From NCBI GenBank assembly GCA_001662655.1, contig KV460218.1: a stretch of 64,000 bases of DNA; one strand, 5' to 3'. How positions within the stretch are numbered: the stretch's first letter is position 1; each line of letters begins with the position of its first letter. Shown here one piece after another: positions 32,117-40,677 of the stretch. This DNA is from Pseudogymnoascus verrucosus. Taxonomy: Eukaryota. A program made the translations under genes and the position numbers. Below the pieces are notes generated by a model. That model ran no database searches and was not told the origin of the DNA. It was given only the letters and a program-made list of their open reading frames with translations.

Positions 32117-35100
32117 TTAGTAAAGGCCCCACTCGATGGTAGTATCGTGCACGTTACCATCACAATCCACTATGCCCTTGGCACCGACCTTGCCGCCGCC
32201 ACCAAACCGCTTGATGGCTTCGTTGATGAGGTCGATGATGTCCTGCGAGCCGACCTTAAACGTCACGTTACCGTCGGCGCCGCTCTTGCTCTGGACACCG
32301 AACTTGCATTCACCATAGGAGACGAGCTGGCGCTGGCCGCTGATGCCGGTTGTCCAGGTGGCACCGCCGTCGCCCTCGATGTTCTTGATGATCTGCTTGC
32401 AGTCTTCAACGGGAGGGGAGGCGTCCGAGGTCTGGTCGACAAAGGACGAGATCAGGCAGTGGTCGGGCCCCTTGGCGATGCTGCAGGGGTATAATGGGTC
32501 GTCGTCCTTAGGGCCGGCGGTGTCCCAGGACTTGTAGGCACGCTCGGGGGTGCAGACGGGAAGGCGGATGAAGCCGGGTGTTGTTAGATCGATCGCCATC
32601 AGGTCGTCGAAGGAGCCGCCATTAGTGATGTCGACGAACGCGCCGCCGTTCTCGTTGCTGTTCTGGAGGTAGGTGCGGACGGATCTAGATAGCTTGTTAG
32701 TTGGATTCTCACTTATCTCCTCAAAACATTAAAACTCGAAGCAATGCGGGATATCTTACCCTTGAATCAGATCCTGGACAGAGACGCCACCAAAGTTCTT
32801 GCCATCTAGGGTTTCAAGGCCAGGGGGAGCCTTGAATTTAGAGTCGACGCAAACTTTATCGCAGTGACCATCATTGCAATTGTCATGGCATGTCTTAGAG
32901 TCGCCCTGGGCTGCGGCCAAGTAGTATAGCTTGTTTTGGTAACAACCATAAGTGGTGTGCATAGTGTCCGCGTCAAGGTAGTCGCCCATAGGGTCAGAGG
33001 CGCTGCAGTCGTAGCCAGAGTCGATCACGAATGCGTAATGCTTGGAGAATGTCCAGCCAGTGGGGATGGCAAAGGCGAAGAAGGCCCTTGCAATGTGGTT
33101 CTCCAGCTCGGCCTCGCTGGTCTCGGGCGGAACGGTTGAAGACTCGGCGCCGCCGCCTGAGATGAGTTTTCCGTCTGAGATGATGGCATACAGAGCATCA
33201 ATGCTCTCATCCTCCCCATTAAAGAGGCGTTGAAGCGCTGCTCCAGTGGTATTACCCCACGCAGCAATGGATTGGCCGAGGTAGTTGGAGAACTCGTCTT
33301 GTTTATCCTCAGTCCAGTCGCTCTCCTTGGTGCTAAGTAGATCCTTGGCAATCGTGGTAGATTGGCCAATAGCAAGCAGGGTCAGATCCTTAATGTTGTT
33401 TGCTGCTGCCTCCTTCGCAATGAAGTATGGCAACTTAGCAATGAAGTTGTTGAAGAAGGGCGCGGCGACGGCAGAGATTCCGACAGTGACAAGATCGAGT
33501 AGGAGCAGCAGCCAGGTGTTGTCTTCTTCCGGAGGAACGGGCGTGAACTTCTTCTCAAAGTCTGACAGCGCTGGGGTGATAACAGTAGCGGCTGCCTTGT
33601 ACAATGCATCATTGAAGGTCTGATACATTTCGTGGATTATGACGAACGAGTTCCAAAGCTCATAGGCGGCGGCGCCGGACCCCTTATTCTGGAAGGGACT
33701 GCACTGCAATGTCTGGATACAGTTGCTGTCGCTCTTTAAGGAGCCGCAGCTGGCGCGCTCTGGACCATTGAGGGTGAGTGACATGGACTGCGTAAAAGTA
33801 AACGAGGTTTTGCCCCTGTCGTATTCCTTCCAAACAGCAATGCTATCCTTCCATGCGTCCTCCATGTCCATCCCGTCCCAGCGCTGCTCGGGAGTTAAAC
33901 CACGGATGTCTGAGGCCGCCTGACTGTCGCACATTATCTCGGTCCAGTTGCCAGTGCGGTCGCCAACTTGCCAAGGGTTCTTGCCGGCCTTAATGCTCAA
34001 CTTGTAGTTTAACCAGCTCCCAGAATCGCCAGGGACATCATTGTACTTCTCCAAATCGGTGGCCCAATTCGTTGTACCGCCTAGGTTTAGACCAGTGTAG
34101 AGCGCATGACGCTGAGTTCGGATGCTATCATCCATGTAGGCTACCCATTGCGTGTCATCATAAACGAGAATGTTGCTATTACTTGTCGGATCAACGTAGT
34201 GATTGGCAACACGGCTTCCCTCGTCTATGATCTCCTTAATCTCAGCATCAGAGATGTAGCCAGCAGTAGCAGTGCATTTGCCCTTTGTGGCATCAGAGTT
34301 CAGGCGGTCACCAGTGTAGAGACACTCGGGGGTGTGACAGCCAGCCTGGGCCATGTTAAAGGATCGACCGTAGCTAGTGATACCGACGACAACCTTGTTC
34401 GATGGAACTTCAGCCTTCGTTATCATGATCAGTGAGCTCATGGTTTCCGTCAGGTTGACCTGACTACGAAGGCAGTTGCCGTTGGCGCAACCCTCCTGAG
34501 AGTTGGGATTCTGGGCATCCCACTGGCCATGAAGATCGTACGTCATGTAAACAATATAGTCGATAACTGCTGCGATCTTCTTGAGTGGGTAGGCCTTCAA
34601 GTACCAGTATGAAGAGGGAGCCGCAATGGAGACGGACTTGCCGGGCAGCAGGTTCTTTAGGATAACTAGGAATGCCAGGTAGTTATCACCATCATCCAAG
34701 CTGGCCGCCGGGATACCTGGAATGTCAGGGGCGCCGGGGTACTCCCAGTCAATGTCGACACCATCAAGATCCTTCTCTTTAATGAAGTTGGCAATATTTG
34801 TGGCCAGCTTCAGCCTGTTGGCAGCAGTGACTCCCTCACGGAAAATAGTATAAGTCTCCGGCATAGTTGAGAAATCCCATCCACCAAAACTGAGAATACG
34901 TTTTGGGCCCTGAATGCGTCTGAAGTTTTCAAATTGATATGAAGACATAATATCACCAACTTCGACCTCATAATTCGCTGTGAGGGTACCGAAAGCGAAG
35001 TGCAGGTGAGTGTACTGCGTGGGATCGATCTGAAGAACATCCTGGAATAGACATTCACGCCCGAAGCTGTAACCCTCGTAGTAAGCAATCCTGCGGAATT

Positions 35101-36604
35101 CGGTGGGGGCGCTGCCCTTGACCATCTTTGTGCCGCAGTTGGAGATGCAGCCGTTGGTGCCGGGCTTAGCGGTTCCTGGGTTGCCAGTTCCGGTGTCGGT
35201 GCAGAACTCAGCGGTAATACCACATTGTCCCCAAATGTCACAGCAGGCATTCAGAGCGCAGGGGTTAAGGTCCGCGAGCTTGGTGCCATCGGTTGGCTGC
35301 TTGGTGCCAGGCTTTTGCGGACCACAGACGATACCCTCTTGACTAGGCGGCATGGGCGGGTCGCCCGTGCTCAAGCAGATGTTCATGTTGAATTGGAGGG
35401 TGTCGCATCCACTCCAAGCCCAAGTATTCTTGTTGAAGTCCTCTAGGTCGGCATTGGTGAGGCTGTTTGCAGCAGCGATGTTTGAGCAGTTATCATCCTT
35501 AGCAACATAGTACACCTTACAGGAACCATCAGGGTTTGGCTTCGGCGCAAAATCAGGAAGGGTTCCCGCCGAGCAACAGACGTGCTGTCCCGGCTTCAGA
35601 GTCGAGCAGAGACTTGCGTCGCTATTGTATTTGGTGAAATCAGCGGCAGCGATACCACACCTGACCGCCAATTTACCACAGTCGTCACCACCCTGGACCT
35701 GCGTGGTGGAGCACTCAGCACGAGCGTTAAGCTTCACATAGTTAGACCGGCTGGTGATGGCCGATGTAGAGTTGGTATCAGCAACCGTGTCGTTTGATAC
35801 GGAAGTAGTTGGGAGCTTGGCAGTTAGCATAGCCTGGCCCTCGAAGGTCTGCGAGTTGGGAAACGACACGCAAGTGCCATTAGCCCAAGACTGCATAGCC
35901 TTCTGGACAGGGGCGAAGGTCCTGCTGCTAGTGGCAAAAAATCCGAAGGTGTGCTCGCTGGTGTAGTCTGGGTTGCAGAACTGGATAGCCACGTCACGCG
36001 ATGTAGCGTTGAGAGTACTTAGGTTGTCCTCTAGGTACTTGAGAGCGACTGCGCTGACGCCCGCCTTCTGCAAGCCTTTACCCAAGTATAGACCAACGGC
36101 AGCGCGGCCAGATCGAGCGTACAAGATCTCTGCGGACTCGGCAGAGCCATGTCCGCCCTTCATGTACTTGCGGAGCTGCTTCGAGGCGGAGCGGATATCG
36201 GCGGCAGCGAGTTTATGGCCATCGTCCCCCCAGCCAACTTCGTAAGTGGCGTCAATAGTTTCAGCAATGACTGCCTTAACTCTAAACTGTGGGAGGTTTG
36301 CAAAGTCAGGACCGTATGAAGTGCAGGCGTAAATTCCGTGGCCTTTGGAGGCATCGTCGACATCGTCGTAGATGGAAAAGGCTTGGATCACTGCCTGGTC
36401 GCAGGCACTGAACTGCTCCAGGTTGTGGTAGGCGTGCCATTTGCTTGGATCTGTCCCAAGATCACTGCAACGCTCTGGGCAGACGTTGCTGTTGCGGTAG
36501 GTAGGACTGACTGCATGTCTTCGTGGGTTACCCGAGACAACATCAGCAGCCATCAAGAGGCCATAGGCCACAAGGGAGGCCCTGGCCCAAGGAGAGAATA
36601 CCAT
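32117..36604 (-). CDS. Killer-toxin-like subgroup C chitinase: prodomain-LysM x2-CBM18-GH18-helical region-Ecp2/Hce2 C-terminal domain
   Basis: Signal peptide, two LysM units, CALNACCDIWGQCG and catalytic DGVDIDWEYP. Single intron 32685-32759. C-terminal SSFVDQTSDASPPVEDC...CKFGV...DIIDLI...GAKGIVDC is typical of Ecp2-like domains. Confidence 0.92.
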
Positions 36605-39536: not shown

Positions 39537-40677
39537 ATGCAGTTCAACTACCTCATTGCCGCCGGTCTCCTCCCCGAGCTCCTTGCCGCGGCGGCGGTGC
39601 CTATGCGCCGAGATGTTAGCTGTAGCTTCTCCGTAGGTGCTAATGCCGGTGACACCTGCGAGACGTTCAGTGGATCTTGGGGTATCTCTGTCGATCAGTT
39701 TCAGAAATTGAACCCGGACGCACAGTGTCCTACTCTTGACGGCAGCAAGAGCTACTGTGTGATCGGCACCGTCACCTCGCCCACTGGTAGCGCGCCTACC
39801 AGCACCGCCAAAGCGACCAGCACCACAGCTGCGCCCACCAGCACCACCCAGGCGCCTACCACCACTACAACTGTGGCACCATCTGGGCCCTCCCCTACCA
39901 TGCCCGGCATCGTAGCCGAGTGTGATCAGTTCTACAAGATCGCCTCTGGTGATCAGTGTGACACTATTGAAGTCAAATTCGGTATCAGTGACAGCGACTT
40001 CAAGAAGTGGAACTCGGAGACCAACGCTGGTACGTATCCCTACTTCTGAATGTGATTATCTTCAAGCTTGGTGTTCTAACTTTGTCCCAACAGCGTGCAG
40101 CAACCTCTGGCTTGACTACTATGTCTGCGTCCACGTTCCAGGCGCGACAACCACCTCCCCTGGTACCCCGACGCCCACCGACTCTGGCCCAACACCCCAG
40201 ATGCCTGGCATCGTAGCCGAGTGTGATAAGTTTTACAAGATCGCCTCTGGTGACCAGTGCGACTCCATTGAATCGAAGTTCGGCATCAGTGACAGCGATT
40301 TCAAGAAGTGGAACTCGGAGACCAACGCTGGTACGTATCCCTACTTTGAATACGAGCGCCTTAAAAGCTTGATGTTCTAACATATCCCAACAGGCTGCAC
40401 CAACCTCTGGCTCGATTACTACGTCTGCGTGCACATCCCCGGCGCGACAACCACCGCCCCAGGTACCCCAACCCCCACCAACTCTGGCCCTACGCCACAG
40501 ATGCCTGGCGTTGTTGCCAACTGCAAGACCTTCCACAAGGTTGCCTCTGGTGAAGGATGCGACAAAATCGGGACACAATACAATATCAGCCTCGCCCAGC
40601 TCCGCAGTTGGAACACCCAGGTCGATGCTACCTGCACTAACCTGTGGGCTGACTACTACATCTGCGTTGGAGTCTAA
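39537..40677 (+). CDS. Secreted protein with four LysM domains
   Basis: Signal peptide MQFNYLIAAG, RR site, four LysM units with Thr/Pro linkers, two homologous introns. Confidence 0.92.
39885..40510 (+). repeat. About 300-bp internal tandem duplication (LysM unit plus intron)
   Basis: Near-identical ...ggcatcgtagccgagtgtgat...gaactcggagaccaacgctg|gtacgtatccctactt at about 39900-40045 and 40200-40345. Confidence 0.9.

Follow-up and report, generated by a model that had tools for sequence, protein, structure and literature searches.

A Pseudogymnoascus copy of the three-gene Hce2-type chitinase cluster, with a possible surface role for its DUF7136 protein

We report that a locus of the soil fungus Pseudogymnoascus (P. 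verrucosus; class Leotiomycetes) is a copy of the conserved three-gene cluster built around an Hce2-type C-II killer-toxin-like chitinase. It lies within the window, i.e. the 64,000-nucleotide stretch of contig KV460218.1 that was analysed. The LysM-CBM18-GH18-Hce2 chitinase gene is on the minus strand with the DUF7136 gene upstream of it, and a 4xLysM gene on the plus strand diverges from the DUF7136 gene; a preliminary description had placed three genes here, and open reading frames (ORFs), Pfam searches and gene models recovered all three at the same coordinates and in the same orientations. As to function, the explanation that we tentatively favour, giving it as a whole somewhat less than an even chance, is that the DUF7136 product is a GPI-anchored surface protein, which neutralises or docks the producer's own chitinase-Hce2, and not a released RNase subunit. 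The features are as follows.

32117..32684, minus strand: chitinase exon 2, with linker, Hce2/Ecp2-like domain and stop codon (Pfam PF14856, E 2e-29; match at 32162-32461)
32685..32759, minus strand: chitinase intron, 75 nt (GT..AG, CTAAC branch site)
32760..36604, minus strand: chitinase exon 1 (ORF and translation; residues 1-1281 and two bases of codon 1282)
33437..33520, minus strand: hydrophobic segment of the chitinase mid region, residues 1029-1056 (Kyte-Doolittle scan)
34055..35092, minus strand: chitinase GH18 catalytic domain (Pfam PF00704, E 7e-46)
35195..35266, minus strand: chitinase CBM18 (Chitin_bind_1, PF00187, E 7e-5; 23.4 bits, below the curated cut-off of 27.8)
35576..35698, minus strand: chitinase LysM module (Pfam PF01476, E 1.5e-7)
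36605..38018, no strand: spacer from the DUF7136 stop codon to the chitinase start, presumed chitinase promoter (ORF list)
38019..38834, minus strand: DUF7136 gene, single exon, 271 aa (Pfam PF23584, E 1e-69)
38022-38105, minus strand: GPI-type hydrophobic tail of the DUF7136 protein, residues 244-271, extending to the last residue (sequence scan)
38136-38753, minus strand: DUF7136 domain, residues 28-233 (Pfam PF23584)
38835..39536, no strand: divergent spacer of 702 bp, common to the DUF7136 and LysM genes (gene coordinates)
39537..40677, plus strand: LysM-only gene, 337 aa (gene model; Pfam LysM on each exon)
39537-40029, 40094-40330 and 40394-40677, plus strand: exons of the LysM-only gene (gene model)

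The chitinase gene has two exons and one intron, and its 1,470-aa product is predicted to be secreted (signal-like N-terminus). Exon 1 encodes this N-terminus, an N-terminal region of 290 aa without a Pfam match, the LysM, CBM18 and GH18 modules, and a mid region of 420 aa, which the 75-nt intron fuses in frame with the Hce2 exon. The GH18 catalytic motif DGVDIDWE is intact (residues 614-621, 34742-34765; script search), residues 1029-1056 form the sole strongly hydrophobic segment of the protein and are aligned in relatives, and six Cys are conserved in the Hce2 region (alignment A3, 12 rows). All of these parts are kept in the linked metagenome loci. Judging from the families, the secreted enzyme would bind chitin via LysM and CBM18 and cut it at the GH18 site, and the hydrophobic mid region together with the C-terminal Hce2 might be a payload, fused to the enzyme, that acts against other fungi.

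The LysM-only protein has four LysM repeats and a signal-like N-terminus and would, by analogy with its family, coat the producer's own chitin; its gene and the DUF7136 gene may use a common divergent promoter region. None of three ORFs in the spacer at 36605..38018 gave a Pfam match. Two runs guessed to be RNA (X14 and X16, from two studies), which are 95-99% alike to the window and come from close relatives, gave contigs covering all three genes (X14 alone also covers all three) and carrying all three splice joints, 32684>32760, 40028>40095 and 40329>40393. The DUF7136 gene is represented by an X14 contig at 38070-38806, and X14/X16 cover is absent from the spacers at 36407-37836 and 38981-39266. 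DNA-type runs (X6, X7) continue uninterrupted through introns and spacers and have no splice joints. Hence, in close relatives the cluster is transcribed and spliced as in the gene models.

The DUF7136 protein begins with signal-like residues 1-27 and has predicted N-glycosylation sites (script). By inspection, D240-G241-A242 followed by an 8-residue spacer satisfies the GPI attachment rule, and the anchor is a prediction from such rules of thumb only; the tail is hydrophobic up to the last residue in 106/114 family rows. The earlier characterisation as a small surface-anchored Cys protein agrees, by the same rules, with the signal peptide and the GPI-type tail, although the protein, with 7 Cys in 271 residues, is not especially Cys-rich. 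Six ectodomain Cys are present in 14/15 linked and 14/16 unlinked copies, linked copies having no extra ones. The AlphaFold2 model is a beta-sandwich (pLDDT 86) and its best structural matches, with Z of 7.4 or less, are to generic domains of the Ig, FN3 or CBM type; no solved nuclease or toxin was among the matches. Taken together, the protein would be an N-glycosylated, disulfide-bonded beta-sandwich, GPI-held on the outer membrane face or the wall of the producer. There it may act at the surface of the producer itself, by neutralising returning Hce2/chitinase or by docking the chitinase, and would not be set free as a ribonuclease subunit.

The three-gene cassette itself is not new, since clusters of this kind have been described by Heneghan, Salzberg and Wolfe (bioRxiv 10.1101/2024.10.25.620242). 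In that preprint, every Hce2-bearing C-II chitinase has a LysM-only gene and a secreted Tox-P3 gene as neighbours, these chitinases make up a single clade that is "exclusively adjacent" to Tox-P3 genes, and the type of partner gene varies with the C-terminal domain of the chitinase. The window copy has the same LysM, CBM18, GH18, long C-terminal region and Hce2 architecture, a LysM-only gene, genes with introns, a signal-peptide gene of ~270-290 aa between the LysM gene and the chitinase, and gain and loss between close relatives. It differs in that its middle gene encodes a Pfam DUF7136 protein that has a GPI-type tail and is modelled as a beta-sandwich ("GPI" and "anchor" are not mentioned in the preprint), and in that it sits in Leotiomycetes. 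Since the authors report no clusters in this class, the Pseudogymnoascus copy extends the known range; the best named match to its DUF7136 protein is from Pseudogymnoascus sp. 24MN13 (Leotiomycetes; 97% identity).

In Fusarium graminearum the order is FGSG_10561, FGSG_10562 and FGSG_10563, where the first encodes LysM, GH18 and Hce2 (1,480 aa, similar in size to the window chitinase), the second a 286-aa protein with a signal peptide and no reported domain, and the third LysM (PMC4494044; PMC7368127). FGSG_10562 is retained in a list described as without transmembrane helices (PMC7368127), which weighs against the GPI reading. Expression of FGSG_10561 (FPKM) is 0 in mycelium, 2.7 in runner hyphae and 45 in infection cushions, and that of FGSG_10562 is 0.05, 8.5 and 50 in the same order (PMC7368127 supplement), a pattern that together with the X14 contigs over the three genes supports co-expression. 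The loci compared show no conserved counterpart of FGSG_10560 on the 3' side of the chitinase. From position and size, rather than from the Tox-P3 sequence, Tox-P3 is very probably DUF7136.

We identified DUF7136 relatives in 73 metagenome loci, and 17 of these encode a chitinase with the parts of the window's; in 15/17 the window order is kept (the chitinase follows DUF7136 on the same strand after 650-1,500 bp). After collapsing the loci at 90% identity into lineages, of which 31 were informative, a chitinase of this architecture adjoins DUF7136 in 16/31, and in 15/31 the downstream 3 kb or more contain no such chitinase, the neighbours being unrelated genes. The recurrence of the layout in independent metagenome contigs exceeds chance. 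The co-occurrence with chitinases that the preliminary description proposed to quantify is borne out, DUF7136 repeatedly adjoining LysM-CBM18-GH18-Hce2 chitinases in fixed order. The LysM gene, earlier called a "shield", likewise belongs to the unit. The divergent DUF7136/LysM pair recurs, 720-1,110 bp apart, in L025, L028, L040, L043, L044, L049, L059 and L063.

These data bear on the possibility of DUF7136 being a general wall or membrane protein on a GPI anchor, e.g. a glycan-binding or wall-remodelling helper, co-regulated in hyphal interactions and without a specific tie to Hce2, which we consider unlikely. Consistent with it, the family has many members (560 clusters at 50% identity with E 1e-3 or better) and several paralogues per genome (the same Pseudogymnoascus species has another copy, with 32% identity, and L029 has tandem copies), many copies lie in unrelated neighbourhoods, such as the Scedosporium member SAPIO_CDS1820 inside a metabolite cluster (PMC12881047), and the fold is similar to carbohydrate-binding and Ig-like modules, at generic Z scores only. 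However, order and spacing beside Hce2-type chitinases are kept among copies of only ~36% identity, which would be hard to maintain without selection, the partner type changes with the chitinase C-terminal domain (10.1101/2024.10.25.620242), and in one database ORF (P0279) DUF7136 is fused with part of an Hce2 domain.

The preprint interprets Tox-P3 as a toxin candidate and not as immunity, and DUF7136 would accordingly be the gamma-like toxic subunit of a zymocin-like toxin, secreted, joining the chitinase and killing inside target fungi. It sits in exactly the Tox-P3 position and has both features cited there for toxin candidates, a Glu soon after the signal peptide (Glu33, invariant) and a Cys near the C-terminus (Cys236, conserved), and these points, together with the published label, count against our explanation. 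Moreover, FGSG_10562 is under diversifying selection (PMC4494044; PMC5870968), the toxin groups are known to lack mutual sequence similarity (10.1101/2024.10.25.620242), and two close DUF7136 copies gave a dN/dS of 0.83. On the other hand, any ORF with a secretion signal beside a chitinase qualified as a candidate (Methods, 10.1101/2024.10.25.620242), and the three candidates tested were all Tox-P1, with no Tox-P3 member assayed. The even number of ectodomain Cys (six) and the beta-sandwich model with generic matches speak against an RNase subunit joined by disulfides, roughly half of the informative lineages lack a chitinase that could deliver it, and the fused Hce2 already fills the payload role in the Hce2 clade, which counts for a non-toxin role of DUF7136. 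Overall, a toxic subunit appears improbable.

An intact DUF7136 copy also survives chitinase loss. The loci L038 and L026 have 96-99% nucleotide identity on either side of the chitinase gene, and in L038 both the LysM gene and the chitinase segment of 6.2 kb are missing while its DUF7136 ORF is intact. The dN/dS above is that between the linked L026 and the orphan L038 copy (only 33 differences) and could reflect relaxed constraint, i.e. decay, instead of retained function. If DUF7136 does protect or dock, copies that outlive the chitinase would behave like orphan immunity genes. We find that a putative immunity or docking role fits better than a secreted RNase subunit because of the GPI-type tail, the beta-sandwich, the even number of Cys, the many copies away from chitinases and the intact orphan. 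Against it, linked and unlinked copies are intermixed on a quick tree, and 15/31 lineages are chitinase-free. Topology, Cys number, fold and the orphan copy all suit the preliminary view of a protein placed like an immunity or anchoring factor, but DUF7136 is not a dedicated immunity family, because about half of the informative lineages lack an adjoining chitinase; as the unlinked lineages have unrelated neighbours, it must also have a chitinase-independent function.

Kluyveromyces lactis zymocin is encoded by plasmid pGKL1, with an alpha/beta chitinase precursor, a gamma tRNase and the immunity gene ORF3. The window locus shares with it a secreted chitinase whose chitin-binding modules precede a hydrophobic region, and a small signal-peptide gene adjoining the chitinase. 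It differs in being nuclear, with introns, in having the Hce2 payload fused to the chitinase, in lacking a dibasic processing site between GH18 and the mid region (script scan), and in its neighbour gene, whose product has a GPI-type tail and does not resemble gamma-toxins. Bacterial polymorphic toxin loci encode modular secreted toxins with variable C-terminal domains, an immunity gene beside them and orphan immunity genes. Similarly, the type of the adjacent small gene tracks the toxin domain here and small-gene copies outlast the toxin, the differences being that the present system is eukaryotic and that the putative immunity protein would be extracellular, on a GPI anchor. C-II chitinases are the sister clade of plasmid-encoded chitinases (10.1101/2024.10.25.620242). 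With the Trichoderma atroviride TAC6/TAL6 pairs the locus shares a subgroup C chitinase and a neighbouring LysM-only gene, for which co-expression and hyphal self-protection were proposed (Gruber et al. 2011, cited in 10.1101/2024.10.25.620242); no DUF7136 gene is described for the Trichoderma pairs, and Hce2 is absent from their chitinases.

Finally, the cluster might serve cell-contact allorecognition, with DUF7136 as a polymorphic surface marker or receptor gating the action of a neighbour's chitinase-Hce2 on the hypha, which we judge very unlikely. To our knowledge no allorecognition system uses the DUF7136, chitinase-Hce2 or LysM families, and we found no population data for Pseudogymnoascus in the literature. 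The predicted surface topology would suit such a role, and the F. graminearum chitinase and its neighbour show trans-species polymorphism (Kelly and Ward 2018, as summarised in 10.1101/2024.10.25.620242), with chitinase variants distinct among three populations (PMC5870968). HET-domain genes are present within 6 kb in 4/15 unlinked DUF7136 loci examined, in the window (48232-50490) and near the Fusarium locus (PMC5870968); this proximity is weak evidence because HET genes are very numerous in such fungi and clustered in variable regions. In module A of the window, a short GH18 gene with many introns is accompanied by a multi-LysM gene and an astacin-like ORF.

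The three genes that the preliminary description had recognised are present at 32117-40677 of the window, and their coordinates and splicing were refined as follows.

36685..32756 then 32728..32117, minus strand: open frames of the chitinase gene, from the ORF list
32759..32685, minus strand: chitinase intron of 75 nt, GT..AG, branch site CTAAC
38834..38019, minus strand: DUF7136 gene, single exon, 271 aa, 1.4 kb upstream of the chitinase
39537-40029, 40094-40330, 40394-40677, plus strand: LysM-only gene, three exons, 337 aa, four LysM repeats

Contigs from two sequencing runs, X14 and X16, were used as transcript evidence; both are guessed to be RNA, no run being recorded as such, and they come from two studies of organisms coded K and L that are 95-99% alike to the window. 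All three predicted splice joints (32684>32760, 40028>40095 and 40329>40393) occur in these contigs, which span the chitinase, DUF7136 (as a 737-nt X14 contig, 38070-38806) and LysM genes and leave the spacers at 36407-37836 and 38981-39266 without cover; contigs of the DNA-type runs X6 and X7 run through introns and spacers alike. Given these joints and this cover, the Hce2 domain is truly spliced onto the chitinase, and the three genes are transcribed in relatives of the window. Contigs are no reliable guide to expression level. The relatives represented in X6, X7, X14 and X16 carry the full cluster.

Removal of the chitinase intron joins the two frames in phase (...DLIQ-G-SVRTY... in translation), and the product, counted from the first Met, is 1,470 aa, i.e. 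above the 1,000 aa that the C-II type demands. The Pfam matches comprise a GH18 domain (PF00704, E 7e-46) with an intact catalytic DxxDxDxE motif (DGVDIDWE, residues 614-621), a LysM (CBM50) module (E 1.5e-7) and a weak CBM18 module (E 7e-5, under Pfam's curated cut-off), both N-terminal to GH18, and, on the same polypeptide in exon 2, an Hce2 domain (PF14856, E 2e-29), the Ecp2-like 'putative necrosis-inducing factor'. The sole strongly hydrophobic segment comprises residues 1029-1056. The GH18 domain is 45-76% identical to those of same-architecture chitinases in metagenome loci, and by architecture and GH18 identity the protein is a predicted member of the Hce2 subclade of subgroup C-II. 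We are confident in predicting a secreted, active and chitin-targeted enzyme to which Hce2 is fused; chitinases of the killer-toxin-like type are regarded as weapons that filamentous fungi turn on one another. The gene immediately 3' of the chitinase (window 30561-31540) has two exons and encodes a DUF7730 domain and no signal peptide; in the loci compared it is not a conserved neighbour of the chitinase. On the other side of the cluster, each exon of the LysM-only gene carries a LysM match (Pfam), and its start codon lies 702 bp from that of DUF7136 on the opposite strand; its predicted secreted product, with LysM repeats as the sole domains, is of the LysM effector type.

The product of the middle gene matches DUF7136 (PF23584) over profile positions 2-213 of 217 (E 1e-69, 235 bits vs a cut-off of 27). 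It has a signal-like N-terminus followed by five N-x-S/T sites and six cysteines, and a hydrophobic tail, residues 244-271, that extends to the last residue. By inspection, D240-G241-A242 together with a spacer of 8 residues and a hydrophobic end of 21 form the usual GPI attachment pattern, which fits a putative GPI-anchored surface protein. Such a tail ends 106 of 114 diverse family members, with a median of 21 uncharged residues past the last charged one. An exhaustive HMMER search (E 1e-3 or better) returned 560 clusters at 50% identity, nearly all of 250-300 aa and matching end to end. Named members belong to Eurotiomycetes, Sordariomycetes, Dothideomycetes and Leotiomycetes, and several of the species carry multiple copies; the closest named member is a protein of Pseudogymnoascus sp. 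24MN13 (97% identical), and others are from further Pseudogymnoascus isolates. Nearly invariant in the 114 members are, among others, D35, F38, P39, N41, T43, Y44, P46 and the six cysteines, the D35-P46 block sitting just behind the signal peptide.

A structure model based on 21 sequences was poor (pLDDT 57.8) and was replaced by an AlphaFold2 model from the 114-row alignment (mean pLDDT 86, core >90), with a beta-sandwich at residues 29-153, a helix at residues 213-230 and additional strands. At a threshold of E 1e-3 Foldseek matched this model to nothing in the PDB, and with a profile of the 114 sequences no PDB sequence reached E 10. In an exhaustive structural search the top Z was 7.4, in the generic range for that tool, on complement MG, FN3, CBM, pilus-chaperone and RhoGDI-type sandwiches, and no toxins were among the structural matches listed. 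Our literature search, by six locus tags, returned nothing functional on named family members, and the term 'DUF7136' in one paper only, for an unannotated gene within a metabolite cluster.

The preliminary description overstated the novelty of this arrangement, the cassette having been published by Heneghan, Salzberg and Wolfe (bioRxiv 10.1101/2024.10.25.620242; a reference list cites a later Fungal Genet Biol version). The available text of their preprint describes small nuclear clusters around subgroup C-II chitinases in Pezizomycotina, with the Hce2 chitinases as one clade that includes A. nidulans ChiC2-2, T. virens TVC3 and N. crassa GH18-6 and GH18-8; A. nidulans without ChiC2-2 is summarised there as having partly reduced antifungal activity. 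The F. graminearum cluster consists of the chitinase-Hce2 gene FGRRES_10561, FGRRES_10562 (assigned to the toxin-candidate group Tox-P3), the LysM-only gene FGRRES_10563 and FGRRES_10560, which has no assigned role (10.1101/2024.10.25.620242). From the accessible parts of other reports, the products of FGSG_10561 and FGSG_10560 have 1,480 and 251 aa, and that of FGSG_10562 has 286 aa and a signal peptide but lacks any domain; FGSG_10560-FGSG_10562 are listed as in planta expressed and under diversifying selection (PMC4494044), and in population differentiation the locus stands out as an outlier (PMC5870968). In mycelium, runner hyphae and infection cushions FGSG_10561 has FPKM values of 0, 2.7 and 45, and FGSG_10562 rises together with it (0.05, 8.5 and 50), while the log2 fold change of FGSG_10563 is 8.0 with a non-significant q value (PMC7368127, in part).

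Our locus is very probably a member of this published Hce2-type C-II chitinase cluster. An equivalent of FGSG_10560 was not found 3' of the chitinase in the flanking regions of eight metagenome loci with a linked chitinase or in the window. According to the available text, the authors found no clusters in Leotiomycetes or Dothideomycetes (10.1101/2024.10.25.620242). Pseudogymnoascus belongs to the class Leotiomycetes; the window shows that Hce2-type clusters occur there, and a cluster copy in a class without earlier reports is new here. The GPI anchor reading is new as well, 'GPI' and 'anchor' each occurring 0 times in the available preprint text.

The window contains a signal-peptide gene that matches the Tox-P3 gene in size and position, DUF7136 being 271 aa vs 286 aa for FGSG_10562, and the usual length in the family about 265-295 aa. 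A signal peptide is common to both, and each has the LysM-only gene on one side and the 5' side of the chitinase on the other. The window spacers hold no other ORF with a family, and the short spacers in metagenome loci are too small for another gene. No F. graminearum, A. nidulans or N. crassa entry was among the matches listed in the DUF7136 protein searches. From position, size, signal peptide and spacer content it is very probable that Tox-P3 and DUF7136 are the same. In the Methods of the preprint any ORF with a predicted secretion signal beside the chitinase is a toxin candidate, and in its available text the three yeast-assayed candidates are all Tox-P1 (10.1101/2024.10.25.620242); the 'toxin' label of Tox-P3 is therefore positional. 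The toxin groups are stated to be mutually dissimilar in sequence, and immunity factors are named by the authors, in the same text, for Tox-P1 and Tox-P9 only (10.1101/2024.10.25.620242).

DUF7136 as a gamma-like toxin subunit would agree with its position beside the chitinase, with a conserved Glu close to the mature N-terminus (E33, invariant among 21 closer relatives and 6-8 residues past plausible cleavage sites), with the conserved Cys236 and with fast evolution. In zymocin a disulfide joins the gamma and beta subunits. However, a GPI-type tail is unexpected on a diffusible subunit, and the number of ectodomain Cys is even, namely six, in 14 of 15 linked and 14 of 16 unlinked copies; of the 97 family rows scored, 83 have six. 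This even count, with none extra in the linked copies, suggests three internal bonds, and a role as toxin subunit seems improbable to us.

The scan of metagenome contigs used 21 aligned sequences from close family members, which gives a sample biased to relatives of the window protein, and 73 loci with DUF7136 relatives were returned. The loci (numbered L0xx below) were searched with the window chitinase cut into five parts and with the window LysM protein. Of the 73, 17 encode a chitinase of matching composition (N-terminal region, LysM/CBM18, GH18 and the mid region between GH18 and Hce2), and Hce2 was present in these linked loci where the contig was long enough. In all but two, i.e. in 15 of the 17, DUF7136 is followed by the chitinase on the same strand at a distance of 650-1,500 bp, as in the window; L023 is divergent and L030 convergent. 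The LysM-only gene lies divergently upstream of DUF7136, at 720-1,110 bp, in L025, L028, L040, L043, L044, L049, L059 and L063, and beyond the chitinase in L006 and L020; seven of the 17 linked loci have it, and most of the others are without flanking sequence.

After L068-L070, which are remnants, had been dropped, the other 70 loci were collapsed at 90% protein identity to 56 lineages, 31 of which are informative. The association with chitinases anticipated in the preliminary description is borne out, since 16 of these 31 have DUF7136 linked to a chitinase of the same architecture; the remaining 15 are without one in 3 kb or more of sequence downstream. That half of the informative lineages have no chitinase for delivery counts against a toxin subunit. 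Mean pairwise identity among the seven complete clusters is 36% for DUF7136, 48% for Hce2 and 62% for GH18, and the linkage has thus outlasted deep divergence. Pairwise identities of DUF7136 and of the chitinase domains are correlated in the seven clusters (Spearman 0.49-0.60), which we do not take as a sign of co-evolution because neighbouring genes have a common history anyway. DUF7136 might alternatively be an unspecific wall protein, which we consider unlikely; with an ordinary partner the locus would be one more copy of the described cluster.

Some loci may be degraded. Stop codons or frame changes interrupt the mid-region match of the chitinase in three linked loci, L017, L027 and L030, and L027 has its Hce2 region split three ways; the chitinase genes may be in decay next to an intact DUF7136 gene, or the breaks may reflect introns or assembly errors. 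The near-identical L068-L070 hold a DUF7136 remnant of about 40 residues (59% identity) with a LysM remnant 1.8 kb away, and look like a dead copy of the divergent DUF7136/LysM pair. The predicted database protein P0279 (384 aa) has a complete DUF7136 domain (residues 29-244) without hydrophobic tail, joined to the last third of Hce2; it is a single case without DNA context and could be a read-through of a decayed cluster or a true fusion.

Around the 15 unlinked copies, 64 of the 259 surrounding long ORFs were scanned. The neighbours found, among them a ferric reductase, an NRPS-like enzyme, Sin3, transporters and RNase T2, are unrelated, and in L054 a GH18/CBM18 chitinase without Hce2 lies near DUF7136. 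HET-domain genes occur within 6 kb in four of the 15 (L029, L038, L041 and L071); such genes are very numerous in these fungi, and their proximity may only mark variable genome regions. That DUF7136 is an allorecognition marker is, in our opinion, very unlikely. A HET-domain gene is also present at 48232-50490 of the window, 8 kb from the cluster. In L002 an RNase T2 gene (4338-5156) lies 1.8 kb downstream of an unlinked DUF7136 gene that shares 52% identity with the window copy, placing a secreted ribonuclease beside a member of a possible ribonuclease-toxin-candidate family; this is probably a coincidence. L029 has tandem DUF7136 genes (3595-4524 and 5847-6416) with no chitinase nearby, and its closest relative L028, which has the full cluster, is 87-94% identical to it at the nucleotide level in patches and is rearranged.

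On a quick maximum-likelihood tree of 60 rows, with 14 loci left out (fragments of fewer than 200 residues and L068-L070), linked and unlinked copies are interleaved; the tree has 10 label changes, and as few were seen in 79 of 500 shuffles. Two loci from closely related metagenome genomes differ in the presence of the chitinase. L059 extends L026 upstream, with an overlap that is 99.8% identical, and carries the LysM gene, the two together giving a full cluster. L038, from a different metagenome record, is 96% identical to L026 over DUF7136 and 99% beyond the chitinase, and in it 83 bp (10833-10915) replace the 6.2-kb chitinase segment of L026 (1164-7339). L038 is also without the LysM gene, having an NRPS-like gene at that position, and a HET-domain gene flanks its DUF7136. 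The DUF7136 ORF is intact in L026 and L038, with 24 non-synonymous and 9 synonymous differences (dN/dS 0.83). Persistence of an intact DUF7136 without a chitinase argues against the toxin subunit. By analogy it looks like an orphan immunity gene that would have outlived its toxin; the data also fit a loss that is recent and followed by relaxed constraint, or a DUF7136 gene that was there first and had the chitinase added beside it.

We propose that DUF7136 would reside on the producer's own surface, where it would protect against, or dock, the chitinase-Hce2 protein, and that it would be expressed from a promoter region common to the LysM 'shield' gene. To this explanation as a whole, a producer-surface protection or docking factor in an Hce2-type cluster, we give, tentatively, slightly less than an even chance. 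The immunity role suggested in the preliminary description is plausible as a hypothesis. A more far-reaching version is rather doubtful: DUF7136 would be the first known immunity (or self-docking) factor for the Hce2/Ecp2 toxin domain, a GPI-anchored extracellular beta-sandwich that neutralises the payload fused to the killer-toxin-like chitinase on the surface of the producer, with the stand-alone copies in Pezizomycotina as orphan immunity genes against neighbours' toxins and Tox-P3 mislabelled. If DUF7136 is a surface protector, one published toxin group is due for reinterpretation, Hce2/Ecp2 domains gain their first candidate interaction partner and the 560-cluster family acquires a testable role; if the immunity reading is true, fungi would have a polymorphic toxin / immunity system that acts outside the cell.

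The other chitinase and LysM locus of the window, module A (3877-11100), has no DUF7136 and no Hce2. Its GH18 gene (about 5970-8000, plus strand) is short, rich in introns and includes a CBM18-like piece; retention of the catalytic Glu hinges on intron placement. The module also comprises an astacin-like metalloprotease ORF with a weak Pfam match (3877-4416, minus strand) and a multi-LysM gene (about 9065-11100, plus strand).
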